A stretch of DNA of 64,000 nt from NCBI GenBank assembly GCA_023205875.1, contig CP060757.1:620001-684000 (forward strand), given 5' to 3'. This DNA comes from Chloropicon primus (lineage: Eukaryota). This document shows positions 36,230 to 60,204 of the stretch, piece after piece. Numbering within the stretch: position 1 is the stretch's first letter; each line of letters starts with the position of its first letter. Both the position numbers and the translations under genes were made by a program. The notes beneath the pieces are model-generated. The model ran no database searches. It saw nothing but the letters and a program-made list of their open reading frames with translations, and was not told the origin of the DNA.

Positions 36230-36418
36230 TGATTCGTGCCGGAACAGCGCCAGATGTAAATGTAAAAGAAAGTATTTATTTCAAACCCCCGAAGAAAGGC
36301 TCACAAAGTCCAAGCACTTGGTCCCAAGAGCCGTCCCATCTCTGGCGACGCTTGCAAACCAGACTTGGCCCTTTATCCCGCGTTCCCCACTTTTCCTTGG
36401 TCCCCCGCCACGCGCTCC

Positions 36419-37701
36419 TTATGCCTTCTTAATTTTACTGTTCGAGTACAAGTAGGCTCCGAAGATGGCGAGGCCAGTACCAACCCAGTTCAAGGGCGAG
36501 ACGTAGTTCTTGAAGAACAGCACGCTGCTCACGATGACCGCCACTCTCTTCATGGTGTTTCCCACGCTGAAAGTGAGCGGGGAGATACCCGTGAGGGCCT
36601 GGTAGGAGACCTGGTTGTAGAGGTGGTAGAAGACGCCGCCCAAGGCCAGGAGCTGCACGAACTTGGCGTTGCTTCCGAGCGCCTGCGCGGCCGCCGTCCA
36701 GCCCGCTGCCCACGTCGACCCCTCCACGAAGTAGGCCACCGGGGCAAGGTAGCACAAGGAGATGATCGAGATGAGGGCGTACATGTTGATCCCGTCGATG
36801 TAAGTGAACTCGTTGAGCAGCTTCTTGGAGAAGACGTTCCTGAGGACCGACCCCAAGTTCGAGATGAGGGCCCCGTTGAAGCCCCCAATGCTGAAGCTGA
36901 CCTCCTTCATCGCGGCCAAGGAGCATCCCGCCACGATTGGCAGGAGTGAGAGGTACGTCATCGCGGAGAAAGACTCTCCCATGAAGACGGATGTCAAGAT
37001 CACCGAGAACACCGGTTCTGCCGCCTTGACGACGTGTGTGAACGACACGGCCATCTTGGAGAAGGACACGCAAGCGGACACGTGGGCTACGGTGTGGAAC
37101 AGGGCCACCGGTGCCAGGCTGAATATGAGCTTCGGGGACACCTTTGGCACCGGCTGGAGCCTGAGGAGCCACATTCCCGCCATCCAGATCACCCCCGAGG
37201 CCAACTGGATCGTCGAAAGCAGCCAGGGCTTTGGGAATATGTTCAGCGTGCTCTTGTTCAAGATGTTGAAGATGATGTTGAAAGCGTACCACAAGGCGAA
37301 GTAGGTCACGAGCTGCGGTGCGCGAAAACAAGGGGGCAGGGGAGCAAAGTCAGCCAGCCGTGCGGGGCGGATGTGAACGTACGGAGATCTCTCCTGTGCG
37401 CACGACCTACCTTCCAGTTCACGCCCGACGTGCTCGGACTCTCCGCAGAGGACGAAGCGGCGCCAACTACGGACTCCCTCGCGTTCTTCCTCTCAGCGAC
37501 CCTGGCATCTCCTGCCTTCCCGAACCGGGGCGAGCACCCGCGGGCCGCGGCCGAGAGAGAACGTCTTGGAATTTCCTCGAGCACGTTTCTGCATCCCGCG
37601 GCCCGCACTGGACGCCTCGCGCTGTTCCCGCCGCACGCTCTCGCGACCCCAGAAGCCTCCCTCGGCCTCACAATCCTCCCCTTCATCGCCGAACTCGCCA
37701 T
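36419..37701 (-). CDS. XPT: Plastid phosphate translocator (TPT family, most like XPT); 2 exons (37701-37411, 37312-36419)
   Basis: Plastid transit peptide, WYAFNIIFNILNK, SFSKMAVSFTHVVKAAEPVFSV and GVFYHLYNQVSYQAL..ISPLTFSVGNTMKRV. Intron 37313-37410. Confidence 0.85.
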
Positions 37702-37946
37702 TCTTCCCCCGTCGTCCTTCACACACGCGCGCGCGGGACAAACAAACTCCTCTCTTCTCTCTCTCTTGGGCTCTTCGTTGCTCGAGCTTTGAATCAGCTG
37801 TTGGAGGTTTTCCCCTGTTGGTGGGATTCCAGTGTATACCAGTTTGGTCACACCCAAAGGACAACCCACTAAGCGTTTTTCTCGTGTTCACTTGCTGGAC
37901 AAGGCAAATCTATAGTTACGAGGAGTTACGAGGAGGGCAGCGAGTG

Positions 37947-37955
37947 AAACCCTAA
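37947..37955 (+). promoter_or_regulatory. Telo-box-like motif AAACCCTAA 9 nt upstream of the Fanzor ATG
   Basis: Exact match to the plant telo-box/telomere unit. It is a single copy, so function is unproven. Confidence 0.35.
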
Positions 37956-37963
37956 TAACCGTC

Positions 37964-40132
37964 ATGGCGCGATCAGGGAAGCGCCGTAAGAAAAAGGAGA
38001 AGCAGGGGAGTGGCTCGACGAGTTCCACAAGGAGGTCGCACTCTGGCGAGAGTCATGCTCAGGGCGCTTCGAAGTCGGGGCAGGAGTCTCCGACGACGGA
38101 GCCGTTACGTCGGTTCTGGAATCAGGGTTTAGCCTGGCTCTACGCGTTGTGCCTGCTTCCTATCGCGGACGACCCCGCCTCTGCGGGTGAGGGTTCGAGC
38201 ACGCCTCGCAAGAAGCGGGGGGGGAAGCGGAAGGAGAAGCCGCTGGACGACCCCGCCTCTGCTTTCGAGGAGGGTTCGAGCACGCCTCGCAAGAAGCGGG
38301 GGGGGAAGCGGAAGGGGAAGCGGCCGGAGGCGGACGCCTCTGCGGGTGAGAGTTCGAGCTCGTCAGGCAAGCCTCGCAAGAAGCCTCGCAAGAAGGGCAA
38401 GAAGAAGAACAAGAAGAAGGGCAAGAAGAAGAAGAACAAGAGGGGGAAGAAAGCAGGGAAGCAGCCGGGTGGCTTGGCGGACGACAGCGTGAAGAAGACC
38501 TGGTTCTCATCGATCAAGAGAGAACTTGTAGAGGTAAAGTGTCCGAAGACGGGATGGAGGTCGTGCTTGAACCTTCCAGAAGATTCTGTGGTATCCGTCG
38601 AGACATTGCAGTCGCCCGCCAAAAGGAAGAGGGAGCAGAAACTGAAGACCTCCAAGCTATTGTCGGAGCGAACGGTGATACGGACGAGGAAGCTTAGGAT
38701 GCGCTTGAACCCTGAGCAGGCGAAGTGCCTTTGCAACTGGATGGGAGCTGCGCGTTTCACATACAACAAGTGTTTGGAGGCGGTCAAGAAGGAGGGTTTT
38801 CCGCTGGTTTGGACCGTCCTGCTGGACAGATTTGTGACGGCCAAACCGCGACGCCCTGAGGTCTTTGAGGGCCTGGAGAAAGAGCTGAAAGAAATCCAAT
38901 GCTCTCCACGGCCATGGACAAAACAGGAGGCAGAGCTTTTCGCGGCCAGAGAGAAGAGACTCGAGAGCCAAATTGGAGGCAGACGATTTCGCGCCGAAGT
39001 GGCCAAGGACCGGGACTACGTTAGCGGGGCCTTTGTAAATCAGAAGCATCCTTGGCTGAAGGATACCCCCTGTGCCATCAGACAAGCTGCCGTGCGAAGT
39101 CTCATCAAGGCATGGGATTCGAACATCGCGAAGCAGGAAGCGATGAAGGAGCGCGGCGAGGAGAAGGGGCACCGCTTCGTTCTCAAGTATCGTCAACGTC
39201 AGCAACCGAGCTCTTGGACCATTGAAATTGATGCAAGAGAGTTAAAGAACGTGGAGACGATCGAAAGGCCAAACACGAGGCACAAGGATGACACCAAGCA
39301 CAACAAACGACGCAAGTGGACCAAGCTGGAGGTGTTCAAGAAGAAGATGGCCGGCGGGCCCCTGTACTTGACGGAGGAGATCCCCGGGGGCAAGATCGAG
39401 GGTGCCGTGAAGATCACAAGAAATCGCCTTGGGCAGTTCCACATGCACATTCCCATCGCGACGCCATGGGATCGCCTGCCACCCCTGAAGCCTGAGAACA
39501 AGCGGAAGGTTGTCGCCCTGGATCCGGGAGTCAGGACCTTTCAGACGTCGTACTCGCCGCAAGAAGGCGTCGGGGAGTATGCCACGGGCGAGCGAGGCTT
39601 CGCGAGGCTGTTCAACCTCTGCTGGAGGATTGATGAGATCATTTCCGAGCGCAAAGACCCAAAGGTGAAGCTCCCTTACCTCGACCGCCGCGACTTGAAG
39701 AGACAGCAATACGCCTGCATGGAGAAAATTCGAGGTCTGACGAACGAGCTTCACAAAAAGGTAGCCAACGATCTATGCAGGAGGTTCGACACAATCCTCC
39801 TCCCGGAGTTCAAGTCCCAAGACATGGTGAAGAAGAACAACAACGGGAGACGCCGAGTGATCAGGAAGAAGACGGCTCGCACGCTCTTGACGTTGAGGCA
39901 CTATGCGTTCAGAACGTTCTTGGCTTCCAAGGTGCTCTTGCACGGCAGTGAGCTGGCGATCGTGACGGAGGAGTACACCTCCAAGACCTGTGGCAGGTGC
40001 GGACACATCAAGGACAACCTGGGTGGAGCAGAGGTGTACAAGTGCCAGAAGTGTGGCTTCAAGTGCGGTCGGGATGTGAACGGGGCACGCAACGTCCTCC
40101 TGAAGCACTTGCGTCAACCAAAAAGTGTGTAA
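37964..40132 (+). CDS. Fanzor (Fanzor2 / IS607-TnpB-like) RNA-guided RuvC endonuclease
   Basis: TnpB-type N-terminal region RTRKLRMRLNPEQ...WMGAARFTYNKCL. RuvC-I VALDPGVRTF (D520), ILLPEF (Pro in the canonical RuvC-II position), alternative acidic site VTEEYTSKTC (E669), Zn ribbon CGRC...CQKC, and RuvC-III RDVNGARN (D704). The ORF is uninterrupted. Confidence 0.93.
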   Translation: MARSGKRRKKKEKQGSGSTSSTRRSHSGESHAQGASKSGQESPTTEPLRRFWNQGLAWLYALCLLPIADDPASAGEGSSTPRKKRGGKRKEKPLDDPASAFEEGSSTPRKKRGGKRKGKRPEADASAGESSSSSGKPRKKPRKKGKKKNKKKGKKKKNKRGKKAGKQPGGLADDSVKKTWFSSIKRELVEVKCPKTGWRSCLNLPEDSVVSVETLQSPAKRKREQKLKTSKLLSERTVIRTRKLRMRLNPEQAKCLCNWMGAARFTYNKCLEAVKKEGFPLVWTVLLDRFVTAKPRRPEVFEGLEKELKEIQCSPRPWTKQEAELFAAREKRLESQIGGRRFRAEVAKDRDYVSGAFVNQKHPWLKDTPCAIRQAAVRSLIKAWDSNIAKQEAMKERGEEKGHRFVLKYRQRQQPSSWTIEIDARELKNVETIERPNTRHKDDTKHNKRRKWTKLEVFKKKMAGGPLYLTEEIPGGKIEGAVKITRNRLGQFHMHIPIATPWDRLPPLKPENKRKVVALDPGVRTFQTSYSPQEGVGEYATGERGFARLFNLCWRIDEIISERKDPKVKLPYLDRRDLKRQQYACMEKIRGLTNELHKKVANDLCRRFDTILLPEFKSQDMVKKNNNGRRRVIRKKTARTLLTLRHYAFRTFLASKVLLHGSELAIVTEEYTSKTCGRCGHIKDNLGGAEVYKCQKCGFKCGRDVNGARNVLLKHLRQPKSV
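38167..38359 (+). repeat. ~80-nt coding tandem repeat in the Fanzor N-terminus (DDPASA..EGSSTPRKKRGGKRK x2 plus a partial third)
   Basis: ggacgaccccgcctctgc...gggttcgagcacgcctcgcaagaagcggggggggaagcggaagg occurs twice. Confidence 0.9.
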
Positions 40133-40460
40133 CTCCTCAGGGTTGCACATACGTTTGTTAGTACGGGCTGCCGTGCGTGGGCGGAAGTATTCGTTCATGT
40201 ACGGTGGAATGGTCGTGGTAGGGCTGAATTACCCTGCCGAGAAACTTACAAACTCGGTGAAACGACCTTTGCAGAAAACTAACAGGTAAGTAGGGGCCGG
40301 CCTTCTCCGTGTTTCTCTCTTTCAGTGGAAAGGAGAACTTGCCTTTGTGCTTCCAGTATTGACTGTGAATTCCCTACCGTCCTTTCGTGACTTTTTCTGT
40401 GTGCTGTTTTTGATCTGATGTCTGAACATCATAACATCAGCTCGGGCTCTTTTTCAAGCC
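40125..40460 (+). ncRNA. Candidate Fanzor omega-RNA scaffold
   Basis: Stems found by eye: 40125-40150 (11-bp stem across the stop codon), 40161-40176, a three-way junction at 40211-40267, 40303-40337, long-range pairing 40201-10 with 40369-80, and 40415-40440. A position overlapping the 3' end of the ORF is typical for TnpB/Fanzor guide RNAs. Confidence 0.6.
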
Positions 40461-40613
40461 GGCTCGAACGACGAACGAGGTGGGCCCGGCCATGCGCCGC
40501 ATGCGCTGATACTGAAGGCCTTTTTATCGATAATGAAAGGACAATCTTTATTACTTTATCTTTTCCTCTTCTTCTTCTTTACATGATGGACCTCTACACG
40601 CCTCGCCCCCGCC

Positions 40614-41948
40614 TTATTGTTGGATGTCCTTGTCTTTGTGAACGAAGTATGCGCCGCTCAGGATGAAATAAGCGAGGACCAAAGTCAGGCCCTTGAGCCA
40701 GTGCGACTGCCCGTCCCCGATCAGAATGACGGCCGTGATGACAGAGGCGAAGAGGGTGACCGTCTCGAAGGGCTCGAAGTTGAGGTCCAGGGACCTGCCC
40801 GACATCCAAGCGATCACCACGGAGAAGGGTATGACGAAGAGGCAGATCTGGGTGCTTGAACCCACGGCGACCCCGATCGTAATGTCCATCTTGTCCTTCA
40901 TGGCAAACATGACCGCGGCCGCGTGCTCCGCCGCGTTCCCCACAATCGGCAGCAAGATCACGGATATGAAGCTCACGGGAATGCCGATGGACTTGGCCGT
41001 CCCCTCGATCGTGTCCACGATGTAGTCGCTGAGAACGGAGATGAAGATGGTGAACACCCCGAGCCAAACTATGCCGGACCAGAAGGTGATCTCCGGCGCT
41101 TCGTCGTTGTCCCCGTCGTCGTCGTCCCCGTTGTCGTCGAAGAGCTCCGCGTGGGTATTGAGCTGAAAGTGCAAGTAGGCCATGTACATCAGCAGGAGGA
41201 TCATGGAAGAGAAGCGAGAGAGCCCCAGATCCGAAGAGTCCCCGTTGAGCTCCGTGTGCGTGGAATGAAGCACCGCTGGAAGCAGCATTGTCGTCACCCC
41301 GAGCAGCAGCAGGCCGCTGGTCGGCGTCACGCTGTCCCTGCTGAAGCCCTGGATCTTGTGCTTCAGCCCGCCAAAGAAGAAGCCGCACCCGAGAACCAGC
41401 AGCAGGTTCGAGAGTATCGAGCCGAGCAGGGAGAGCTGCACCAGCCGTAGCATGTTCTCCCTTATTGCTATAACGGCAACGATCATCTCCGTCAGGTTGC
41501 CGAAGGTGGCGTTCAGCAAGCCACCCAGAGTCGAATTCGTGTACAGGGCTATCTGCTCCGTGAGGTACCCCAGCCTCTCCGCGAGGGGGCACAGGGCTAT
41601 GAGCGAGAAGACGAAGAGAGTGGAGTCCCCACCCGCTCCACTGATCTTGCACAGTATCGCTATCGGCACAGACGTCAGCAGGAGGTTCAGCTTCGTCCCA
41701 TAGAAAACTGGCCCGATGCTTTCCTTCAAATCTTCCAAGGACAGGGACCTGTTCGGCCCTCCCCTCGCCTGGGAATTCAGCTTGTTAAAAGGCGATAACT
41801 TGGAGTCACACGACAAATCGATCTCCAGACTGTTGGCGTTCTTCTTCAGCAGGGTGTCTTTCACCTCATCCTTGACAAGGTCTCTGTTTCCGTCCAGTCG
41901 ATTTATCTCCAGCGTATTCCCGAGCGCCTGCCCGGTCACCCCTCCCAT
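40614..41948 (-). CDS. CAX: Vacuolar Ca2+/H+ exchanger
   Basis: [42 protein letters not shown] and [10 protein letters not shown]. Confidence 0.95.
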
Positions 41949-42402
41949 CGTGTCTCCCTCCAGACACTCAAGCCTGCACCTCTCCTCCCCCCAAGCGGAG
42001 CGTCCTCCGAGTTGATCTCCTCTTCGCCTCGCCTCGCCTTGTCTCTCGTCTCTCGTCTCTTCTCGTTTCCCGAAAGGACTAAACGATGGACTTCGATTAA
42101 CGCAATTGCGATCTTGGAGTTTACTTAAGGGAAAGGGGGGAGGGGATGGTCGTTGAAAGTTTTGACTCGAGAGAGGGGCGAGGGAGTGTCAGGGCGAGGA
42201 CGGAGCAAGGAACGACCAAGGAGAGTGCTTGGAAGGAAGGTCCTGTCTGCCTGCCTGCGAGACCTGGAGGAGAGAGGACTTGGTGGAGGTGTGGGTGTTT
42301 GTTTGTGCTTGTGTTTGTGTTTGTGTTGGACGGAACAGAAGACGGAAACCCTTGGACCTTGGAAGTAGTGGCGACCCTCAAAGGTACCTACTTGGAGGCG
42401 TC

Positions 42403-48853: not shown

Positions 48854-51800
48854 TTACAAGGGTGCCATCAACAACCCATTCGCATCGGTGGTGTGGAGGA
48901 AGAGACCGTCTTCCATCGGTCCAGCAAAACCGTTATATGGTACAAAGTTTGAGTTGGCTACCGACCAGCCACAGGAGCTGGGCTCAAACTTGTAGATCTT
49001 GGGATCCGCCATTTCAGAGCTCGAGGAACCTCCTCCGTAGACATACACATCGGCGCCGTAGGTGAACATGGAGTGCTCGTACCTCGGCGAGATTCCTACG
49101 TCGAGAACGGACTGACCAAGCTCAAGTGGGCAGCCACCAGTTATGTCGGAGCAGGTGAAAGAGAGGGACCCGCCAAGCACCTGGGGAGTGCATTTCTGGA
49201 ACCTGTTGGAAACGAGTCCGGCGGGCTCCATGCCGCCAAAGACGTACACGTCGCCGCCCGCAGAGGCCGCGGCGAGCCCGAACGCTGGAGAGGCGATCTC
49301 CCCCACCTTGGACCAGGCATTGGTCGAAGTCGTGTACGCCCACATGTCCCTGTGCGCGTTTCCAGCAGAATCACGGCCACCGATCACGACGAAGGTCTCC
49401 CCATCAAGAGCGACGGCGGCGTGATCGTACCTTCCTGATGGACTCGCGCTCGCCACTGGAACGAACGAGAAGGCCGAGGACGCGAAATCGAAGGTCCAGA
49501 GGTCACTGAAGGCGTACCCGCTTCTCTCGCCACCGAAGAGGTAGTAGGTGTCCTTGAGCAAGGACCCCGCTTGACCGTACCTCGCTGTTGGAGACCCAGT
49601 AGTTGCAACAGGTTGCCAGGACCGGTCACTGACCCAGGAGACGCGCTCGTCTCCAGCCGTTCCGGAACTGCTCACCGGCGACAGGCCACTACTATACGGC
49701 ATGACGTAAACGAGGCCATCCGTCACGAATTGGGAGCTCACGGTGACGCCCTCGAACTTTGAGCCCACGCTGTCTTGCTTGATGACAACGCCATCCATGG
49801 TGATCGTCGTCGAGTCCTTTGTGCCCACGATCTCGATCGAGTGGTGTCCTTGGCTCCTGGCCAGGCTCGATGCCTTCCAAGGCGAAGCCGTGCAGTACTT
49901 GTCCGCGTGAGAGACAGTGTGGACGCCAGCCGCAACAAATTCGGTGGAACCGTCCCTGTAATTTGGACTGATCCACTGGGAGGCCGCAGACGCGTGAGAG
50001 TCGTACAAGGTCGCAAGGAGCTTGTATGGCTGAACGGTGGCGGAGCTGGGCGACATGTTGCCCACGTCCTGGACGACGTCAAAGACCTTCTTCGCCTCCT
50101 CCTCGTCAGAAACGCCGCCCGATTCGACCATGTGGGAGTTCCCGTAGTACATGTCAAGGCTGGCCGCTTCGGTTCCTTGAGGGATTCTGAGGAACACCTT
50201 GGTGTCTTCCGCCATGCACCCCGGAATCGGATGGATGTAGTGGGGCAGCTTGTGGCCGTTGTTGGGCAGGGTGAAGACCATGTCCATGCAAGACGATGAC
50301 ATCCTTCCCATGCCAATAATCTCAAGGGTATTCAGGGTCAGCTCGAGAACGACGTCGCCACCAGCGCTCGAAGCCTTCAGGTTGCCCAAGGACCCGATCG
50401 TCCTCTTGTACGCCAGAGAATCCTTCATGGCCAAGCCGTTGCTCAGCTTGTACATGTCTGATTTGTACTCCACGGGCAGGCCCCCCTGTGCCCTGGCGCC
50501 ACCCCAGACGAACAAGTCTTTCCCGTAGGCCACAACAGTGGGCTTCAACCTGTCCGTCTCCGTTGGCGCTTCAAGGCCGTTGGTCAGCGCAGACACCCAG
50601 TCGTCCGCCTGGTTCACCATGACTGAGAACGTGTGAACGGTTGGGTGGGGAGCGGTGTCCGCCTCGATCTCTATCGTGTGATTCCCTGGCGCGTGGAAGA
50701 ACACTCGCATCATGGTGTCAACGCCGTCGTAAACGAAGTCAAAGGCGTGGGAAGTAACCCTCAACTTCTTCAAGTCGTCCGATACCCTTGAGGACTCGGC
50801 AGCCGCGTCGTCGCTGCCAGAGTCCCCGTGGACCAGTTGCGACCAAGATTCCCCACCAAAGTCCGTCTCATGCAAGGAGTCGTAGAACTCGTTGATCGAG
50901 TTTCCGTGGCTGTCCATGAGAACGATACCGAGGGAGCTCGAAACACCGGCCACGATGTTGGCAAAGGCGGGCTGAATCACTTCAAAGGCGGCGAACTCCG
51001 CAGGAGTCACAAGAATCTCGTGCTCCGAAGAGATTTCTCCGCCAACAGAAACGGTGACGCTGTAGTTGCCAGCCTTGGAAAGCTGGGCTGTCACGGAGTT
51101 TGTGCCGTCAATGCCTCCGTTCGTGCCGCACCTGAAATCGATGTTCGGGTAAATGGTGCCCGCAATGGCTTCCCCGATCACGTGCGCTGGCTCTGTCTTC
51201 AAGTACTTTCTTTCAAAGGGCTTGAAATGCACCTTGACTCCCTGAGAATTGTATCCGGGAGAACTTGGGTCCTCCGCCTGAAGGTGAGTCCCCGTGTACC
51301 TGAATCCACACTTGTCCTTCGCTTCCAAGCTCATGATGAAGAGACCCGCCGTGGTCGTGCTCGACATGTCTGCTTTCGTGTAAGCTGCCCCGATGGTTCC
51401 GACGCCCTGTCCAGACGCCGAAGCGTAGGGAGTGTCCGTATCCGTGACCTGGCCAGCCGGCGTTGGACCGACGGCCGTGCCCTTCACGCCAGTGAGGCTG
51501 CCAGAGGTCTTGGTCCCTGTCAGCGCCGTTGGGGCGAGCCCCTCGGACGCCTTGTTGAACCCAACGTACGCGACGAGCTTGGTCTTCTCCAGGAAGGCAG
51601 GACAGTACATGCTCTCCACCACCTGGCTCGCGGATTTACCGTACGAGAACACCTTCACCTCGTCGACCATGCCAGAGAAGCCGTAACCCACCGTCAAAGG
51701 ATGGGAGTAGGGGTTGACGTGCACAGGCTTGCTTTCGGCGAAAGGCTTGGACGCCTTGAGAACGCCGTTCACGTAAACATTCATCTCGGCACCAGTGTAC

Positions 51801-54800
51801 ACCACGGACAGGTGCGTCCAAGTCGTAAAGGAAGAGATCGGGGCGGAAATGGACCTGATTTCTCCGGCACCGACGTAGACGGATGCGGAGACACTCGACA
51901 GGCTGTCCGTGAGCGCCAATTCGTAGCCCTTGATGTACTTGTCCTTCTGCGAGTGAGAATCCTTCAGCAGAATGTAAGCGTCTCTCCCCGAGTCGGAAAG
52001 GGGCTTCACCCAGGCTTCCATGGTCAGACCCGTGTTTCCGTCCAAGGAGAAGGTGTCCCCCGCGTCAGCAAACTCGACGGCGTTATCGCCGTAGAAGTAC
52101 ATGGAGCTTCCCACGCACACCTCGATACAAAAGTGCGTCACGGTCGTGTCGCCAAGCTTCACCTCCACGGTGTATTTTCCCTCCGCAGGCGGGACAAAGG
52201 AAACCTCGTACAGTCCATTCATCGTGTGAACGCCGTTCACGACGAAGCTGTCTGGGCCCGTGATGCTCGCCACCCACTTGTCGCTTCCGTCGATTCCCGA
52301 CTTGCACCCGTAGTCGTCCATGGATTGGATGTTGAACCTCGCAAAGGACCCAAAGCACCCGATGACGTTTGGCGAAGCGATCGAGTTCAAGTCCACGACG
52401 TGGGAGGCCGACGCGCTCGTAGAGCTTGGAGCAACATCCACGGTGAAGGCCTGCACAAGGGTGCCGTTGGAGCTGACGCTCATCTGGTGGGTTCCGCACT
52501 GCAGGCCCAAGTAGGAGACGTGGTAATTTCCGTCGTTGTCGTCCAAAGCACTCATCGTGGTCTTCGTACCGTCGGCGCTGCTCTGGAACTCCACCTCAAA
52601 GTTGTCTCCACCGCCCTTTCGCTTCCTCAGGCAAGCCGTGTTCGCCGTGATCGTGAACCTTCCGGGAGTTCCGCTGGTGGCTTGGGTGAGTCCAGGCCCG
52701 TAGAACGAGGTCGCGGGCAGGTAGGTCGCATCATCAAAAGAAGCGTCCGTCCAAGCACTTTTCTGGGGGATCCGGACACGGACGCCGGACTGGGCGTCGT
52801 ACTCCCCGGAGAATCCTGTGTTCAGGGGGAAGTAAATATCGCCAGATTCCTCCGTGGTCGGGCACTGGGTCGTCGTCCTGTAGCTAGAAGACTTCTTTGC
52901 TGCTGTGGAGAGCCTGATGTCGTAAAGGAGTCCGTCAAAGTCCTCTCCGACTGCCAAGAAGTCGTCGCCATCAAGAGCGCTGTAAGTGCTCAGGGCTTGA
53001 GCGTCCTGGAAAGTCACCTCGTCCACGAGAATGCCATCGACGAAGAAAAGCATGGTCTTGCCAGTGATTCCGATTCCAACGTGCGCCCAAGTGTTGGGCA
53101 TCAAGGTGGCCTTCCAACTGGTGTGCTCCTCGTACGCCAAGCACGAGGTGCAAGTGCAGCCTGACTCGGAGACGTTGACCACGGCGCGCAGAGAGCCACC
53201 GGATCCGGGGGTGCCCGAGAAACCGATCTCGAAGTTGGAAGTCCTCAAGAGCACCGATTCGGTATCGAACGCGGCGGGCTTCACCCAAAACTCGAATGAG
53301 GATACCTGGGGGAACGAAGATTCTCCGGGCAAGCCCAGGTAGACAGGCGTCTTGCTCAGGTCGACGGCCTGGTCGTCAACCTTGTATCTGGCGTCAACCT
53401 CCTCGGCAGTGAGAGTGCGGTCGAACAACCAGACTTCCGCCAGCGTTGCGTCTAGGCCAGCGAGCAAGGTCGTTCCACTGAAGAGAGTCTTCAGCGGCTC
53501 CTGGAGCACGGAGGCCTCCAAAGCAGTCGCTCCCCTGCCGTTCACGTAGACCATGTTGCCCTCCGTTGCGCTCTTCGTGAGGCAGTACAATTTGAACCCC
53601 CCGATAGTCCCAAGGTGAGGTGAAGGGTAATTGACTCTCATGTAAGCACAAGCGGTCTCATCGGTGAGACTACCCCTCGCGCTGATCGCGTTGTAGTAAT
53701 CCGAAGTGGGAACCACCTTGATATCGCTGCCGTCCCCAGACAAAGCAAGGATGGAATCAGGGTTGCTGCTCGCAAACGTTCCCCAAGGCTTGTTTCGCTG
53801 GCCAGTTGCGCCAAGCAGAACCAAAACCACGTCCTGACTGCTTCCCGACGACGACGGGGTCGAGGACGAGGAGGAGCCTGTGGGGGCCCAAGGCACGTCA
53901 GACTTATACTCAGACATACCCTCGATGTCAAAGTTGCTGTCGCCCTTGCTCGTGTAGAAGCTCACCGTGCTTCCCAGGTTGGCGACCACCTGATCGGCTT
54001 CCGCGTTGACGGTCAGTGACTTCACCTGGTCTGCAGACAGTGCGCCCTTGAAGACGTAGACCTCGTCCACAAAGCCGAGGAAGAAGTTTTCCCCTTTGCC
54101 AGACGAATCGAGACCCGCGCAAAGCGTCAGCTTGTTGCTTGGGAATGGCGTCGCCGAAGTCGTGAAATTCTTGGCAAAGTCGCCGTCGAGATAGAGGGTA
54201 CCTTCGCCCTCGTCGTTCACGGTCACGGCGACGTGGTACCAAGCGTTGTACGCGTGCGTGATCTCAGAACGAACCTCTTGAATTTTGTTGTCGTAGTACC
54301 CGAATGCCTTTCCATCGTAGGTGATCGAGGCAGACGTTTGGCCGGCCAAAGTCTGGAACGCCAGAACCGTTTGGGAACCGCCAAAGTGAAGGTAGTCTGA
54401 CTTGGCCCAGAGAGCCATCGAGTAACCATTGTAATTGGTCTCGATCATAGAGGAAGCAGAAGAGAACCCCTCCACGAAGGAGCTTCCGTCGCAACCCAGC
54501 GAGACTTCCATAACCTCGACGCTCACTGGCTCTGGGTGAATGACCTCACCGAAGCCAAGCTTCGTGAGCGCTACATCGTCGAACGCTGGCAGGTCGCACT
54601 TGAACGACTTGTCACTGATCTTGGTCATGTTTGAGCTGACCGTACTGCCGCTTCTGTCAAGCTTGCGCAGATCGGACTGGACTGCGTTGTACGTCCTGCC
54701 GTCCGGCCTGTCCAGCGTTCCTTCCCCGAGGGCCGACCCAACAGCGTTTTTGACGTTCGCCAGGTTTTGCTCCACGGATGGGGTGTGCTCCCCATAGCTT

Positions 54801-57800
54801 CCGAAGTTGCACTTGAGCCACTTGCTTGGTGCCATATTGAAACCCTCGACCACCACCTCTTCACCGCCAACCATGGCGACGTGCATTCGCTCCGACATGC
54901 GCTCCGACACATCGTGAATCTGATTTCGAAGCTTGATGGTCTTGACTGAGACCGGCTCCCACGGCACGGCCGTTGGCACGATGCTCACCGCCGTCTGAAG
55001 CGGAGTAGCTATGTAGCCCGTGTTCGTGTTGAAACGATAGTACACGTCTCCGGTCTGGGCGTACCTCGTAAACATGACGTCGTGCACCTTGGACTGATCC
55101 ACGGCCTCCTTCAAGACCTTCAGCTCGTCCACGTACCCAACAAATCCATTCGCCAAGTTTATCAAAGAGTAACCCCCGAGCACGGAGGCCACGGGTGCTG
55201 GCGAGCTTGCGTCCCCGTCCGTGTACACCCTGGCGTTGTCGTCGTCATCAACGACGACCGTGACGTGATGCCACTCGTTCAAATCCAGGGCACCGGATGT
55301 CGTGAGCACGTTGGACGAATCCATCAGCTTGATTTGCCTGTTCTGCCACAGGACCGCCAAATTGTTGGAAAGGAGAAGCAGGGTCGCGTCCCCCTCCTGC
55401 TCCGGGAGGAACCAGAGCGCGAACGTCTTTCCCTTCGCTTCCGTGGTCAGCTGGACCGAAGCGGTGGCCGAAGTCTTCATGGAGAACTCCGAGTACGTCA
55501 TGTCCTTGTGCTTTGGGCTTCCCGAGATCCCCGCGTCATTGCTCAGGCCCAGATAGTAGGACTGAGAGGGGTAAATCCCCTTTGGCAGCTTGCAGATTGC
55601 CGCCTCGTAAGAGCCGTAGATGAAGCTCTCACGCAAGTTGTTGCCCATCCACGAGTGGTCGGGCATTGCCTGGAAGGGTGGAATGTTTCCGAACCTCATG
55701 TTTCCTCCGCTCGCCGCGGCCTTGTCTTCGGTGGTCACGTGCCAGTCGGACCTGAGCTGGCCCTCGTAAGTCTTCTGCGCCGGGTGCCTATCCGACTCCA
55801 CGACAAGGTGCGGAAGCAGGTCATTGGGCTGGTGGCTCACCGTTGCCGCGGACACCATGACCTGGGAGAGCTCGCTGCCGTCCGAAACAAGGGTGGTGGA
55901 CCCCTCGTTCTTGTACCCGTAATCATAAGCCCCAACATCCGAGGCTGCTCCCGTGTCAAGACCAGAAACGCACTTCATGAAAGGCGACTTGGCGAATCCG
56001 ACGCCGTACAAAACGATCGTGATGTCACCATCGATAGGAAGGCTCGAGTTGTCGACAGTGGTGTGAGTCACCGAAGGCGTGGCCCACGGGACTCCCGTGT
56101 ATACGTACTTCCTGCCGGCGGCAACCGTCACGCCGTCGTCCCTCTCGTCGGCGGTGTCGCCAGTGTAGGCCGATTTCCCGGACTCGTCTGACACTGCGGT
56201 CGACAGGGCAGGACCCTCCGTACACGGGTTGTTGAACCTGGAATAAAGCGTTCTTCCCGCAGCAAAGTCCACCTGATCTCCCCGAGGCCCTTCGAGCTCC
56301 CTGCTAGCGAGGCTCTTTGGCATGTGGAACAACGTGCTCGCCACTTCGTCCTCGTCCAGCACCCTGTTCCACACCGCCACCTCGTCCATCAATCCGTCAA
56401 AGGTGTGCGTCGAGTCGTCCGTGCAGCCCTCGGCCATGCGGAAGGAACAGCAGGATGTGCCAGCAGGGTCCAAGCCAGCCTCGGCCTGCGTGTAGCCGTC
56501 CGTGGCGCTGTACATACCGCCGTACATGTCAGATTGCAAATTCCTCCTCCTCGAAGAAGAAGAAGTGCCGTCGCACTTGTTTGGATACTGGGTCGTCTGG
56601 AAGAAGTTGCCCACGCCCGTTCCCTTATCGTAAGTCGCAGAGTCTGAGGAATCAAGCCCCACGTGAATCTCCAACTCTTGGGTGGCGCCGTCAACGTACA
56701 GCTTTCCCAAACCTCCCTCGTCGATCGAAACCATTGCGTGGTGCCACGTATAGTCCTCGTACGAGCTGGCGGTGTAGTACCGGGAGCTGCCCTCCACCAC
56801 GACAAAGCGCTTCAGGTTCGGCTCCCAATTCAGAGCAAGCTTGCAGTCGAAACGCAGGAGGGTCTCCTCCTCTTTCCCTGGCTTTTCCTGCAAGTGAAGC
56901 TCGATGCAGTAGTAGGGCTCCGCGGTCACAAGGTAATTGTCGGACGCGTAGAAGCACACCAAGCTTTCCGTGGGGCGGGTGTCGGATCCCCCTATGGAAT
57001 CCCACGTGAACTTTCTTCTCACCTTCTTTCCTTGGCTGTCGGACGAGACTTCTGGGGTGGACAAGGTCGCACCCACTGGAAGACCCACGGCGTGGACGCT
57101 CAAATCAGCGCAGTCGTCGGTGTCCACGGCGGTCACGTAAAATTCGAAAGTCTCCCCTAAATACTTCGTAACCGCTGGCTTCTGCTGCGCGCCCGCCTGG
57201 ACCGACTTCTCGTACATGTCCAACCTTGGGTTGTTGAGGATGCCGTTCACGAGGCCAGTCGTAGCAAAAACGGGTGCTGTGTTCATCTTGCAGGCGGACG
57301 TTGGGTTCGGCACGATGCTCGTCTCCAAAATCTGCTCGTGAGAGTTCCACACGGAATGCGTAATTCCACACTCCCCGTCAGCGATCTCGGGGTGGCACGA
57401 GGAGAGGGTCATGTTGCCCTCCCCGTAGCCACAGACGGAGCAAGATTCGTGGACCCCATCCAAGTCCGCATGGGTCGCGAGGCCGGGCTTGAAACCCTTC
57501 TTGCAATTCTTGTCGCAGAAGTGCATGGGGCCGTCGTACAAGTATGTCATGAAGTCGACGGGCACCTTCACGCCAGACGCACGGGCGTCCGATTTGTCGG
57601 ACACCATGACGACCATGTTGTAAAAACCGGAGCGCAGCTTGGCGCAGTCCACGCCCTCCACGGGCGAACCGTGGGCGCAAGGACTCCCGTCCGTCGCTGT
57701 CCAAGTGTTCCACTCCACCAGCCCCGGCACGCTGCTCGTGAACGAGTGTGTGCTCAGGCCGGAGATTTCTTGGGGCTCCCTGTCGCTTGGGCACCGCCCG

Positions 57801-59176
57801 GTCAGGGAGAAGGCCTTGCTCGCGATGTCGCACTCGTAAGGCCCGTACTCGAGACCAAAGTTTGCCAGGATCTTTCCGGTGGTGTCGTAGGACGCCCTGG
57901 CCTGGCCGGTCAGCCCGACGTTCTGGGAGTACGGGAAAGCCTCGGTCTTGCTTCTCGTGATGCCCCCCATCTCGATCTTGTCTCCGAACCTGAAGGTGAG
58001 GGCGTCCCCGTCCGGATCCATCGCCGCGATTTGGAACTTGGCGCGAATTCCAGGAAGCTGGTGTGGAATCGGGAGGACTGGAGGCTGGTGGACGACCGGA
58101 GACCTGTTTCCATCGCCCTTGAGCCACACCTCCACCTCAAGACGGTACCTTCCCTGCTGGTTGTTGTTCAGAAGGACGTTCAGCGAGCCGTCACACGCGC
58201 CCGTGGAGGACAAGGGGTTCGCCGGGTAATCGCACTCGTAAAACCTTTCCCCGCCCGTGAAAAACGCGACGAACGGGTCGGCCGTGTTGCGCTTGTAGGC
58301 ATGGGTGAAGGTGCCGACTCCAGTCACAGAGTTTCCCAATCTGCTGCTGTCGTCAGAGTTCACATCAGTCACCTCAAGCTCGATCGTCTTTGAAGAACCG
58401 TCCCCCATGAACATGCCGTAAAGTTCGCTCCAAGGGGCGCACTTTCCGGCGTCCTTGGTCGGGTTGTTCCCGTAATCGTCGCACAGGGCTGACGCCACGG
58501 TGTTCGCCTCCGTCGTAAACGTCGTGGACCTCGGGTACTCGGAGCTCGTCTCGGCCTTGGCCGCGTCGCAGTGGAAAGGCGAGGGGCAGGGCACCACATC
58601 AGTCGTACCGTCGTTCTGCTTCTTCGGTGGGAATCGGATGAAGAACCTCTCCCCGAACACACCGTTCCCGGACGAATCCGTTGTCTTGTAGTCCACGTGG
58701 GGACTGGTGTACTCGCACCCAAAGTAGCCCGCCGTGGACCCCGCTGGGCAATTGAAGCAAGCGTTCTGAGTGAACACGTTGCTCAGGGCCTCGTCCGTGC
58801 ACCCAGAGAGGGACTTGTCGAAGCCAGCGGAACCTTCTCTCAGCGCTCCCTCGCTTCCGTAAAACACCTTGGTGCCCGACGACCCCGCCGTTTGAGCCCA
58901 CTGCTCGTTATAATAGGAACCCCACTCGTAGTCCCTGCGAAAGCTTGCCCTGATTGTGAACTCGACCGTCTGGAGGTCGTTCGCACTATCTATCGTATTT
59001 GTCGGAACCCAAGAGAGCGTTCCGTACCGGAAACGCGACGCTCCCACTAAGCCGGAAAGAGCCCCGACAAGGAAAACAAGAGCCAGTGCCAAGCGACACA
59101 AGTGGTTCCTTCCTATCGTCTGGACTCTCCTGGGTCGCCGCGGCGTCCTCGACACCTTGGCGCCTCCTCTATTCAT
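48854..59176 (-). CDS. Giant (3440 aa) intronless secreted multidomain protein: LamG/concanavalin-like repeats, IPT/Ig-like and filamin-like repeats, C-terminal Kelch propeller
   Basis: Signal peptide. At least five LamG-like motifs (WHHV.V..D......Y.DG; F.G..DEV..F). Filamin-like GGDNFEV...DNDGNYHVSY. Kelch repeats (YLFGG, VVIGG, YVFGG, YVYGG). Confidence 0.85.
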   Translation of the reverse strand: MNRGGAKVSRTPRRPRRVQTIGRNHLCRLALALVFLVGALSGLVGASRFRYGTLSWVPTNTIDSANDLQTVEFTIRASFRRDYEWGSYYNEQWAQTAGSSGTKVFYGSEGALREGSAGFDKSLSGCTDEALSNVFTQNACFNCPAGSTAGYFGCEYTSPHVDYKTTDSSGNGVFGERFFIRFPPKKQNDGTTDVVPCPSPFHCDAAKAETSSEYPRSTTFTTEANTVASALCDDYGNNPTKDAGKCAPWSELYGMFMGDGSSKTIELEVTDVNSDDSSRLGNSVTGVGTFTHAYKRNTADPFVAFFTGGERFYECDYPANPLSSTGACDGSLNVLLNNNQQGRYRLEVEVWLKGDGNRSPVVHQPPVLPIPHQLPGIRAKFQIAAMDPDGDALTFRFGDKIEMGGITRSKTEAFPYSQNVGLTGQARASYDTTGKILANFGLEYGPYECDIASKAFSLTGRCPSDREPQEISGLSTHSFTSSVPGLVEWNTWTATDGSPCAHGSPVEGVDCAKLRSGFYNMVVMVSDKSDARASGVKVPVDFMTYLYDGPMHFCDKNCKKGFKPGLATHADLDGVHESCSVCGYGEGNMTLSSCHPEIADGECGITHSVWNSHEQILETSIVPNPTSACKMNTAPVFATTGLVNGILNNPRLDMYEKSVQAGAQQKPAVTKYLGETFEFYVTAVDTDDCADLSVHAVGLPVGATLSTPEVSSDSQGKKVRRKFTWDSIGGSDTRPTESLVCFYASDNYLVTAEPYYCIELHLQEKPGKEEETLLRFDCKLALNWEPNLKRFVVVEGSSRYYTASSYEDYTWHHAMVSIDEGGLGKLYVDGATQELEIHVGLDSSDSATYDKGTGVGNFFQTTQYPNKCDGTSSSSRRRNLQSDMYGGMYSATDGYTQAEAGLDPAGTSCCSFRMAEGCTDDSTHTFDGLMDEVAVWNRVLDEDEVASTLFHMPKSLASRELEGPRGDQVDFAAGRTLYSRFNNPCTEGPALSTAVSDESGKSAYTGDTADERDDGVTVAAGRKYVYTGVPWATPSVTHTTVDNSSLPIDGDITIVLYGVGFAKSPFMKCVSGLDTGAASDVGAYDYGYKNEGSTTLVSDGSELSQVMVSAATVSHQPNDLLPHLVVESDRHPAQKTYEGQLRSDWHVTTEDKAAASGGNMRFGNIPPFQAMPDHSWMGNNLRESFIYGSYEAAICKLPKGIYPSQSYYLGLSNDAGISGSPKHKDMTYSEFSMKTSATASVQLTTEAKGKTFALWFLPEQEGDATLLLLSNNLAVLWQNRQIKLMDSSNVLTTSGALDLNEWHHVTVVVDDDDNARVYTDGDASSPAPVASVLGGYSLINLANGFVGYVDELKVLKEAVDQSKVHDVMFTRYAQTGDVYYRFNTNTGYIATPLQTAVSIVPTAVPWEPVSVKTIKLRNQIHDVSERMSERMHVAMVGGEEVVVEGFNMAPSKWLKCNFGSYGEHTPSVEQNLANVKNAVGSALGEGTLDRPDGRTYNAVQSDLRKLDRSGSTVSSNMTKISDKSFKCDLPAFDDVALTKLGFGEVIHPEPVSVEVMEVSLGCDGSSFVEGFSSASSMIETNYNGYSMALWAKSDYLHFGGSQTVLAFQTLAGQTSASITYDGKAFGYYDNKIQEVRSEITHAYNAWYHVAVTVNDEGEGTLYLDGDFAKNFTTSATPFPSNKLTLCAGLDSSGKGENFFLGFVDEVYVFKGALSADQVKSLTVNAEADQVVANLGSTVSFYTSKGDSNFDIEGMSEYKSDVPWAPTGSSSSSTPSSSGSSQDVVLVLLGATGQRNKPWGTFASSNPDSILALSGDGSDIKVVPTSDYYNAISARGSLTDETACAYMRVNYPSPHLGTIGGFKLYCLTKSATEGNMVYVNGRGATALEASVLQEPLKTLFSGTTLLAGLDATLAEVWLFDRTLTAEEVDARYKVDDQAVDLSKTPVYLGLPGESSFPQVSSFEFWVKPAAFDTESVLLRTSNFEIGFSGTPGSGGSLRAVVNVSESGCTCTSCLAYEEHTSWKATLMPNTWAHVGIGITGKTMLFFVDGILVDEVTFQDAQALSTYSALDGDDFLAVGEDFDGLLYDIRLSTAAKKSSSYRTTTQCPTTEESGDIYFPLNTGFSGEYDAQSGVRVRIPQKSAWTDASFDDATYLPATSFYGPGLTQATSGTPGRFTITANTACLRKRKGGGDNFEVEFQSSADGTKTTMSALDDNDGNYHVSYLGLQCGTHQMSVSSNGTLVQAFTVDVAPSSTSASASHVVDLNSIASPNVIGCFGSFARFNIQSMDDYGCKSGIDGSDKWVASITGPDSFVVNGVHTMNGLYEVSFVPPAEGKYTVEVKLGDTTVTHFCIEVCVGSSMYFYGDNAVEFADAGDTFSLDGNTGLTMEAWVKPLSDSGRDAYILLKDSHSQKDKYIKGYELALTDSLSSVSASVYVGAGEIRSISAPISSFTTWTHLSVVYTGAEMNVYVNGVLKASKPFAESKPVHVNPYSHPLTVGYGFSGMVDEVKVFSYGKSASQVVESMYCPAFLEKTKLVAYVGFNKASEGLAPTALTGTKTSGSLTGVKGTAVGPTPAGQVTDTDTPYASASGQGVGTIGAAYTKADMSSTTTAGLFIMSLEAKDKCGFRYTGTHLQAEDPSSPGYNSQGVKVHFKPFERKYLKTEPAHVIGEAIAGTIYPNIDFRCGTNGGIDGTNSVTAQLSKAGNYSVTVSVGGEISSEHEILVTPAEFAAFEVIQPAFANIVAGVSSSLGIVLMDSHGNSINEFYDSLHETDFGGESWSQLVHGDSGSDDAAAESSRVSDDLKKLRVTSHAFDFVYDGVDTMMRVFFHAPGNHTIEIEADTAPHPTVHTFSVMVNQADDWVSALTNGLEAPTETDRLKPTVVAYGKDLFVWGGARAQGGLPVEYKSDMYKLSNGLAMKDSLAYKRTIGSLGNLKASSAGGDVVLELTLNTLEIIGMGRMSSSCMDMVFTLPNNGHKLPHYIHPIPGCMAEDTKVFLRIPQGTEAASLDMYYGNSHMVESGGVSDEEEAKKVFDVVQDVGNMSPSSATVQPYKLLATLYDSHASAASQWISPNYRDGSTEFVAAGVHTVSHADKYCTASPWKASSLARSQGHHSIEIVGTKDSTTITMDGVVIKQDSVGSKFEGVTVSSQFVTDGLVYVMPYSSGLSPVSSSGTAGDERVSWVSDRSWQPVATTGSPTARYGQAGSLLKDTYYLFGGERSGYAFSDLWTFDFASSAFSFVPVASASPSGRYDHAAVALDGETFVVIGGRDSAGNAHRDMWAYTTSTNAWSKVGEIASPAFGLAAASAGGDVYVFGGMEPAGLVSNRFQKCTPQVLGGSLSFTCSDITGGCPLELGQSVLDVGISPRYEHSMFTYGADVYVYGGGSSSSEMADPKIYKFEPSSCGWSVANSNFVPYNGFAGPMEDGLFLHTTDANGLLMAPL

Positions 59177-60204
59177 CTTCTACCAACTCCGGAAACAACC
59201 GGCGTTCCGGTCTCTTCCAATTCCCAATCTGACACAAGAGAGACTACCACTCGGCGTTGGTCATGCTATGTCCGTCTGCCTCACTCTCTCTCTTGCTCTC
59301 TCTCTCTCTCTTGCTCTCTCTTGCTCGATCTGTCTCGCTGTCCCAAAGCTCATGCAACGCGCTGGTGTCTCATCAGTCGTCTTGGGTGTTCCTACACCTG
59401 ACGCGCGCGAACCCACCAGCAACAGTAGTGATGGAGTCCAGCAAGCCAATCGCTTGCGTCCTTGGTCACTGCGAAGGTCTCCACCCCCTACCTCTGGTAA
59501 AAGGTAAAGCCTTCCCGCTGCTAAGCCTGGTTTCGATCTTCGAGCCTCTCAAGCTCCTCAAGACAAGAGAGAGAGAGAGGGAGAGGCGGAGGGAGGAGAG
59601 GGAGGGAGGTATTGCTTCAAAAAATTTCCTTGCCACTTTTCATAATTCATGGCAAACCCCAAAGTCAATTCATGGGCAAGAGACCTGACCTTGGTGCAAG
59701 AGGAGTCGAGGACGCGAGGAGTCAAGGGACGCGGGGCCAATTGGAAGTGTCGCGTGGCATGTACCAAACCCATTGCATTGCGTTCTCCGATTCATCGAAA
59801 CGAAACAGACTCCTTTTTATTTTCTTAATCAAGGGTCAAGGTCTTCTTCGTCTTTGCCGCGAAAAAGGAGGAGGAGTTCAAGGCCAATTCAAAATGGTTT
59901 CCCTTTCGGAGACATCGTTACGCTCGTCCGCGGGCCCACGGCATGGATATTCCAACGAAATCCAGGCCGTCGGTGGAAGCCAATCGTCAACTCTTCCCTC
60001 GAAAGCCTCTCACCCCCTTAGGTTTTCCCTCTCCCTTCGCCCAAGGCTCCTCTCTCTCTCTCTCTCTGGCTCCTCTCTCTCTCCTCTCGCTCTCTGGCTC
60101 TCCGCTTGAAAAGGGAGGAAGCGAAATATTTCTCCTCGGCTTGGGTTGACGGGAGCATCAGAGCGAGCGACTTGACTTGTCTTGCTGTGCGAAGACGTGG
60201 CAAG

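Follow-up and report, generated by a model that had tools for sequence, protein, structure and literature searches.

A multicopy Fanzor2 transposon of Chloropicon primus and the likely role of splicing in supplying its guide RNA

How can a nuclease carried by a transposon obtain an RNA guide from flanking DNA if the scaffold of that RNA ends before the transposon does? The question is raised by a predicted Fanzor2 nuclease gene in Chloropicon primus, a diploid marine green alga, of which a 64-kb stretch of DNA (the window) was examined here. The gene lies in an element of 2,638 bp at positions 37799-40436. We conclude that this is one copy of Fanzor2*, a multicopy and non-autonomous transposon of C. 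primus, and that its predicted nuclease is likely supplied with a guide when the spliceosome removes the last 151 bp of the element. Observed directly are the element ends with their target-site duplication (TSD), the copy number and polymorphism, the catalytic triad, the scaffold end, a splice donor at that end and RNA contigs that branch there. The argument refers to the following features.

37794-37798, no strand: left copy of the 5-bp TSD, TCAGC (TSD-plus-terminus scan)
37799-40436, + strand: non-autonomous transposon with degenerate terminal inverted repeats (TIRs), ends TGTT...AACA (end scan, contig ends and published insertions)
37964-40132, + strand: Fanzor2 open reading frame (ORF), 722 aa, uninterrupted, encoding the predicted RNA-guided nuclease
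40125-40285, + strand: predicted omegaRNA scaffold, overlapping the Fanzor stop codon (fold z-score, covariation and ApmFz2 register)
40286-40440, + strand: predicted spliceosomal intron of 155 nt (donor GTAAGT at 40286, CTGAT at 40415-40419, acceptor AG at 40439-40440)
40437-40441, no strand: right copy of the 5-bp TSD, TCAGC (TSD-plus-terminus scan)
40441-40461, + strand: predicted flank-derived guide after splicing, which is also the predicted genomic target, with a cut expected near 40459-40461

The element, its copies and its nuclease

An earlier note on this DNA, made from the sequence alone, had delimited the locus as 37964-40460. Its start is indeed that of the ORF, but the mobile unit begins 165 bp earlier and ends at 40436. 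A plain TIR scan with 12-bp matches did not detect these ends, which were first read from depth and then from a TSD scan; in both intergenic spaces, TCAGC/TGTT with AACA/TCAGC was the single 5-bp TSD pair with a 4/4 terminal match. Among the contigs, 37827 is where a unique DNA contig stops, and one RNA contig runs into a loose end behind 40436; the TGTT/AACA ends recur in published heterozygous insertions (PMC6731263 Supplementary Data 8, in excerpt). The insertion is intergenic, with the Fanzor as the only gene inside the element.

The element had been described as solitary, which its relatives within the species contradict. The nearest proteins are named "putative IS605 transposase [Chloropicon primus]", and the cluster at 90% identity has 46 members on many chromosome-sized C. 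primus contigs belonging to two accession series. In DNA run X1 the contig depth is 3,573 in the element and 125-136 in its flanks, a ratio of about 27 that should not be equated with copy number, and the unique X1 contigs stop just within the repeat. The genome annotation counts 25 such genes (PMC6731263, in the parts consulted), spread over 14 chromosomes, and 23 of the 25 share one common best match (PMC6731263 Supplementary Data 6). Three heterozygous insertions of the element, of 2,707, 2,664 and 2,664 bp, appear in the excerpt of Supplementary Data 8 (PMC6731263), where no deletion row matched any of six motifs within the first 400 letters per cell. The three sites are Chr3:123680, Chr6:369520 and Chr17:327259 of the published reference. 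The copies are 96-99% identical and hence young. Heavy recombination among them is indicated by the four-gamete test, which 349 of 595 informative site pairs fail, but only 5 of the 26 pairs no more than 10 residues apart; the test used 13 of 15 listed cluster members (P0123 and P0125 were dropped as truncated or frameshifted), among which orthologous pairs are possible. The window holds no second copy or short derivative of the element, and the right-end motif has no exact match in viral contigs or in prokaryote genome contigs. Some copies are truncated (P0005, and P0154, whose C-terminus is foreign). Derivatives with internal deletions are transcribed, with a joint at 37913-40377 (run X5) and loose ends at 38564 (runs X3 and X5), so that forms resembling miniature inverted-repeat transposable elements exist in the species.

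The earlier note had offered two options, a non-autonomous element mobilised in trans or a host-domesticated RNA-guided enzyme. The first is supported. Domestication could draw on the facts that the element is expressed and that this same site is also filled in a DNA run whose element sequence departs from that of the window; for the family it is refuted, and we regard it as having almost no chance, given 25 genes on 14 chromosomes, a TSD and TIRs, three heterozygous presence/absence sites and mosaic copies. The gene is neither single-copy nor free of transposon ends.

The search for a transposase nearby agrees with the earlier note: no transposase or integrase Pfam family occurred in the 36 scanned of the 90 window frames of at least 200 aa, and a TnpA profile built from 63 loci found nothing in the six frames of the whole window. 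The two mobilisers previously considered, a serine recombinase or a Y1 transposase, are probably not the right ones. Because the element has TGT..ACA ends and a 5-bp TSD, its mobiliser was probably a DDE integrase-like transposase (PMC10045372). Such ends are described for IS481EU and 4-5 bp TSDs for Ginger2/TDD (PMC10045372, in part); both occur here. Unlike Ginger2 and IS481EU, the element itself and the scanned window frames contain no integrase-like DDE transposase, and the assignment is made from the ends alone. A Ginger2/IS481-like enzyme encoded elsewhere would then move the element. Two other large heterozygous insertions, Chr1:974796 (2,531 bp) and Chr3:74671 (1,534 bp), are unlike the element in their first 400 letters (PMC6731263, in excerpt); they are candidates for other mobile elements, possibly including the missing transposase.

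The 722-aa ORF and all the motifs previously named in it stand where they had been placed. RuvC-I is ALDPG (residues 518-522, D520) and includes the DPG expected of Fanzor2; in ILLPEF (611-616), P614 occupies the canonical position of the RuvC-II Glu, as in Fanzor2; the alternative Glu, E669 in VTEEYTSKTC (667-676), precedes the zinc finger by six residues and fits the pattern Exxxxxx[CH]xxC; the zinc ribbon consists of CGRC (676-679) and CQKC (694-697), with C676, C679, C694 and C697; and RuvC-III is RDVNGARN (703-710, D704). D520, P614, E669 and D704 align, as counted along the alignment, with D324, G416, E467 and D501 of ApmFz2, in which D324 and E467 are essential (PMC10530073). The earlier identification as a Fanzor2 with the rearranged RuvC site is supported. 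The triad and the zinc cysteines are unvaried in 13 of 13 aligned copies, between which paired indels restore the frame (38724/38728 and 38131/38133). Pfam matches are PF07282 and PF12323 (HTH_OrfB_IS605); among NCBIfam models, guided_TnpB scores 91 bits (cut-off 100) and IS607_TnpB lies far under its own cut-off. The closest solved relative by sequence is ApmFz2 (PDB 9b0l, E 6e-20). A TnpB-like fold was also obtained from the AlphaFold model of paralogue P0003 (pLDDT 74.7), whose first Foldseek match is 9b0l (E 1.6e-12, TM 0.57), with Fanzor1 structures at ranks 45 and 49. Ten bases upstream of the Fanzor start codon, at 37947-37954, stands AAACCCTA, which we take to resemble the plant telo-box promoter motif.

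That this is a Fanzor2 copy of the published multicopy C. primus transposon is very nearly certain. Fanzor2* of C. primus was described as non-autonomous, with TIRs, a variable 5-nt TSD and no autonomous partner (PMC10711439 and bioRxiv 10.1101/2023.08.09.552727, both in part); the window element belongs to the same family, with degenerate TIRs, a 5-bp TSD and the Fanzor as sole gene, and Table S3 of that work lists UPR03652.1, which is P0003, 99% identical to the window protein over the nuclease part (PMC10711439, in part). The earlier suggestion of a new editing system is for this reason not supported, and any such claim is modest. A Fanzor repeat has also been noted in another green alga (PMC12633428, in part). 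The family and its TIR/TSD structure are thus already known, and the interest lies in the guide architecture. The available text of PMC10711439, figures 2, 4A and S3 aside, contains no terminal motif, omegaRNA boundary, splicing ("splic" has no match in either the article or its preprint) or tnpA relic. In the portion consulted, PMC10711439 states that the TIR and TSD form part of the scaffold in Fanzor2* elements, whereas the scaffold encoded here stops 151 bp short of the TIR end.

The scaffold end and the predicted intron

The segment 40125-40290 folds with a z-score of -5.15, and none of 200 shuffles was as stable. Its core helix, 40157-40162 with 40278-40283, has 6 bp, all 30 of 30 cells paired and compensatory changes at 4 of 6 pairs, while slid control helices pair in 17-63%; the helix was picked by eye in a MAFFT alignment of five sequences, the window and the related loci L001, L002, L003 and L005. 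Rfam returned no match for the scaffold at E up to 1. The outer pairs of L003 and L005 (G:C and C:G) equal G(-192):C(-2) and C(-191):G(-3) of ApmFz2, in whose numbering the scaffold end is 0 and the guide 1-21 (PMC11832414, in part). By homology, C40283 would be -2, G40285 would be 0 and G40286 would be guide position +1. The scaffold end, 40285, is 151 bp inside the right end of the element, and the core helix closes at 40283, 153 bp before that end; a guide read from unspliced RNA would thus be fixed and internal. The window scaffold ends in AG, while those of L001 and L002 end in GG.

Exactly at this point stands a perfect splice donor, CAG/GTAAGT, whose GTAAGT starts at 40286, the predicted guide +1. 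The string AGGTAAGT occurs three times on both strands of the window (128 kb), the donor at 40286 included. The last 80 bp of the element are T-rich and free of AG (an AG-free run matched in 597 of 20,000 shuffles), and a branch-like CTGAT lies 22 nt ahead of the first downstream AG, which is supplied by the TSD. The species mean intron length is 152 (PMC6731263, in part), beside the 155 nt predicted here.

Runs X3 and X5 are RNA runs, since both skip a 98-nt host GT-AG intron at 37313-37410 (- strand) in the neighbouring TPT-family gene. RNA contigs from both stop at 40285 (X3 record 14 and X5 record 19), one X3 contig leaves at 40287, and an X7 contig, from a run that is RNA by guess only, diverges after 40286. 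Between 40225 and 40304-40369 the RNA depth drops to 105 in X3, where it was 1,888, and to 170-181 in X5, where it was 1,280, a loss of about 86-94%; DNA contigs, unlike RNA, continue to 40436. On the other side, the alignment of X3 record 15 begins at 40438, and 26 of its letters are left unaligned. Precisely this start is expected from a 40285/40441 splice, because CAG is common to both sides and base 40437 differs. A polyA tail or an empty site was rejected as the source of the 26 letters, as the match would then extend to 40437 or 40436. A 40-nt intron to an internal CAG (40325) was likewise rejected: X3 depth is equal at 40304 and 40369 (105.2), and the joints listed include none of that kind.

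If the acceptor is supplied by the insertion site, right flanks should carry an AG. All four right flanks seen have one within 4 nt: TCAG in the window, AGAG at a loose end, and ACAG and AGGA in published rows (in excerpt). The chance of an AG is 0.20 per 4 nt, or about 0.008 for the three flanks outside the formation of the idea. In the derivative with loose ends at 38564, the ancestral GG end is retained, and the same donor comes after it.

The break in the RNA at 40285 could instead reflect no splicing at all, if some genomic copies ended at the old IS607 right end and used ordinary flank guides. Position 40285 is that ancestral end, truncated copies such as P0005 and P0154 do exist, and the joints listed hold no splice joint. 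We nevertheless consider this account very improbable: the full 151-bp tail is present in the window and in both published insertions with a visible right end (in excerpt), the DNA still has, at 40304, at least 58% of its depth at 40103-40229 (2,083 vs 3,573) while RNA retains 6-14%, and the donor, the branch-like motif and the AG-free zone would all be coincidences.

Several points weigh against splicing as the source of the guide. The joints listed include none from 40285 to 40441, and the junction, whose letters were not seen, is inferred; contigs show neither strand nor RNA level; a subset of DNA copies, possibly beyond the loose ends listed, might terminate at 40285 and account for the expression. 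One of the four AG flanks prompted the idea and another is a noisy long-read row, and the 4 bases visible ahead of the left end in a Chr17 insertion row include no AG (in excerpt). The relatives L001 and L002 have neither an in-register donor nor a TIR carrier. On balance, splicing at 40285 is probable, in our view with room for doubt. A spliceosome-built guide was not found in the literature searched, in which subscription papers, figures and bioRxiv supplements were outside reach.

Known systems combine splicing and mobile elements differently. In IStrons, IS605 or IS607 elements with a group I intron, splicing reportedly competes with guide RNA. There, splicing acts on RNA that also encodes the TnpB guide (10.1101/2023.11.20.567912, in part); IStrons are bacterial and self-splicing, whereas here a spliceosomal intron would create the guide. 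Introners take their donor from the element and their acceptor AG from the insertion site, likewise here, but are spliced out whole from host genes (PMC9860276, in part), whereas the predicted intron consists of the last 151 bp plus 4 TSD bases of the element's own transcript. The window element is no Introner in that sense, its donor lying 2.5 kb inside the element and its insertion being intergenic.

Targets, signs of cutting and competing explanations

ApmFz2 nicks its target at 19-20 and at 15/18/21 (PMC10530073). Compared with X1, the window shows no difference in 36400-37827 and three in 40399-42000. Two of the three replace the bases at 40459-40460, which are positions 19-20 of the predicted target; the third is a one-base insertion between 40438 and 40459 (by counts from the end). 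A second pattern comes from the heterozygous insertions (in excerpt): two of the three begin with 25 and 26 right-flank bases rather than 5, and the third has 3 bases before its left end and a similar total length, its right end being out of view. In the allele without the element, about 20-23 bases past the AG thus seem to be missing too. IS481EU also shows discrete TSDs close to 25 bp (PMC10045372, in part), and a 25-bp TSD is an alternative source of the 25-26 extra bases, but it would not be expected to vary with orientation. Both the differences at the cut site and the heterozygous-flank pattern are single, post hoc observations. The 3' region of a CAX-family transcript runs antisense across the predicted guide and target, at 40438-40614 (X3 record 15).

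The proposed course of events is as follows. An IS607 element with tnpA and Fanzor2 would have inserted within a small TIR carrier, leaving the scaffold 151 bp short of the new right end and so fixing the guide; tnpA would then have decayed, but its +1 frame would live on as the Fanzor N-terminal domain. The tail would be excised as a GT-AG intron that runs from 40286 to the first AG of the TSD or flank, giving a transcript of scaffold followed by flank that resembles an IS607 right-end product. The Fanzor would process it to omegaRNA and cut about 20 nt past an AG-ended target-adjacent motif (TAM) at a matching site, and the resulting breaks would promote homing into empty alleles, give rise to resistant deletions and cause gene conversion between copies.

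Self-targeting speaks against this course. With the acceptor AG inside the TSD, TAM and target would also be present in the filled allele, so that cutting would occur beside the element itself. A 3-nt TAM is typical of Fanzor2 (in part of the literature consulted) and could not separate self from empty, and the fifth base upstream is A in both here. Three ways out can be named: the alga may tolerate self-cleavage, in keeping with the mosaic copies; most spliced guides may be idle; or the working form may be the unspliced one. The literature surveyed contains no cleavage data for this protein. Whether the spliced RNA is the working guide of an active nuclease is, to our judgement, an evenly balanced matter.

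The last of these options is that unspliced omegaRNA, with the fixed guide 40286-40306, cuts cargo-less carriers and reconverts them, splicing shaping only the mRNA's 3' untranslated region. Such a guide would escape self-cleavage, as CGG does at IS607 ends; unspliced RNA is present (depth 105 in X3, 170-200 in X5), and deletion derivatives are transcribed (37913-40377, and 38564 ending in GG with the same donor). We find it unlikely, since unspliced RNA is a minority (about 6-14% by contig depth), the internal 20-mer has no other target in the window (best 14 of 20), and the AG-bearing flanks and the 25-26 extra right-flank bases are left unexplained.

Equally unlikely is a passenger nuclease, for which splicing occurs, guides rarely meet a usable TAM, the Fanzor is simply carried along or binds DNA without productive cutting, and spread depends on the trans-acting transposase only. 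The self-targeting problem favours it, an algal Fanzor1, CrFNuc, showed no cleavage in vitro, and copies this young make an intact triad weak evidence of selection. Against it stand a triad and zinc cysteines that 13 of 13 aligned copies retain, the intact scaffold helix, the frame-restoring indels and the flank changes at the predicted cut site. The spliceosomal supply of the guide remains our preferred reading. [quoted passage not shown]

Probable IS607 ancestry, neighbours and meaning

Two further features bear on the origin of the N-terminal domain.

38110-38640 (approximate bounds), + strand: decayed IS607 tnpA relic, in another frame beneath the Fanzor N-terminal domain (tblastn and blastn)
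38167-38470, + strand: tandem units of about 81 bp with a Lys-rich stretch resembling a nuclear localization signal, the unit number differing between copies

Residues 175-231 of the L005 TnpA gave 38470-38640 as the top window match in tblastn (33%, E 0.001), and blastn to the tnpA-overlap region of L002 gave 65% over 237 nt (E 1e-19). A hidden Markov model of 63 TnpA sequences did not detect the relic, and the evidence comes from the closest relatives only; the intact serine-recombinase tnpA of IS607EU is absent, leaving a weak out-of-frame relic with stops. Upstream tnpA was found in 89 of 158 fetched loci, and in 82 of those 89 the Fanzor frame is open at least 150 nt into tnpA, invariably as the +1 frame. 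In dereplicated loci, counted upstream from where tnpA homology ends, at least 240 nt without a stop are found for the +1 frame in 56 of 56 cases and for the +2 frame in 3 of 56. In all 56 of these relatives, it is the +1 frame of IS607 tnpA that encodes the Fanzor2 N-terminal domain. The conserved FWN..LP..D..SWF is the +1 reading of the TnpA segment around HRDRLCRFGFEL, and the SWF-type motif aligns weakly to KTWF (178-181) of the window protein. In ApmFz2, the N-terminal RuvC-R subdomain (N82, S83) touches the RNA pseudoknot (PMC11832414, in part). That this Fanzor2-specific, RNA-gripping domain arose by overprinting on tnpA belongs to the joint reading and is as tentative as the whole. In the literature searched, as far as it was accessible, no mention of the Fanzor2/tnpA frame overlap was found.

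Decay of tnpA appears in stages: L005 (263 aa) and L006 (220 aa) have whole TnpA ORFs, L001 and L002 have a decayed tnpA with an intact Fanzor frame, and the window relic is decayed further. The window protein is nested with the TnpA-bearing L003 and L005 (FastTree support 1.0, in a tree without Fanzor1 or a named TnpB outgroup); the tree comprised the first 45 of 65 dereplicated locus proteins, 8 database homologues and the window protein, was midpoint-rooted, and no donor was inferred. With ApmFz2 and IS607EU (9b0l being the mimivirus Fanzor2) the window element shares the triad layout, the register of the core RNA helix and the N-terminal SWF-type motif; it differs in having no intact TnpA, a longer, repeat-expanded N-terminus and, unlike IS607EU, a 5-bp TSD. 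The repeat expansion is itself variable, P0126 (746 aa) and P0131 (695 aa) corresponding to gain or loss of one unit of about 81 bp, and the Lys-rich stretch may serve as a nuclear localization signal. No TGT..ACA carrier surrounds L001 or L002. The related Fanzor2 at L001:1250-3090 (55%), in which tnpA is reduced to its overlapped 3' half, represents an intermediate stage of tnpA loss; by eye, it adjoins a eukaryotic-looking gene. The 10-bp direct repeat GTTACGAGGA occurs twice at 37917-37937, with an inverted copy at 40130-40139 in the first omegaRNA stem; these are possibly fossil TnpA-binding repeats of the ancestral IS607.

The neighbours had been named XPT and CAX. The genes that flank the element, both on the - strand, belong to the triose-phosphate-translocator (TPT) family (PF03151), with XPT a candidate identity, and to the Na/Ca exchanger family (PF01699), and a TPT-family RNA contig reaches 37780, 14 bp from the TSD. 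Elsewhere in the window, 48854-59179 (- strand) is an open frame of 3,441 aa in which laminin-G, filamin and kelch domains occur. Among the related proteins, P0030 (947 aa) and P0063 (921 aa) join XPG domains (PF00752 and PF00867) to a Fanzor-like zinc ribbon; they match the window protein at 52-53% identity over 25-29% of the query, and reflect either a true fusion or read-through across an insertion.

Once captured by a eukaryotic transposon, a Fanzor2 has to rejoin its scaffold to flank sequence. In the published solution the TIR and TSD are recoded into the scaffold; splicing out the transposon end would, if true, be a second, eukaryote-specific solution that turns the IStron conflict around, with a TAM ending in AG as its prediction. 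For practical work, reprogramming this enzyme would mean replacing the sequence from 40286, not from the element end, and the assay proposed in the earlier note (the ORF with 400 nt of downstream sequence) would likely load the fixed internal guide in a non-splicing host. The tnpA overprint would account for the origin of the Fanzor2 N-terminal domain. With a diploid host, about 25 copies and three heterozygous sites, homing by a Fanzor in its native host is testable in C. primus from existing reads.

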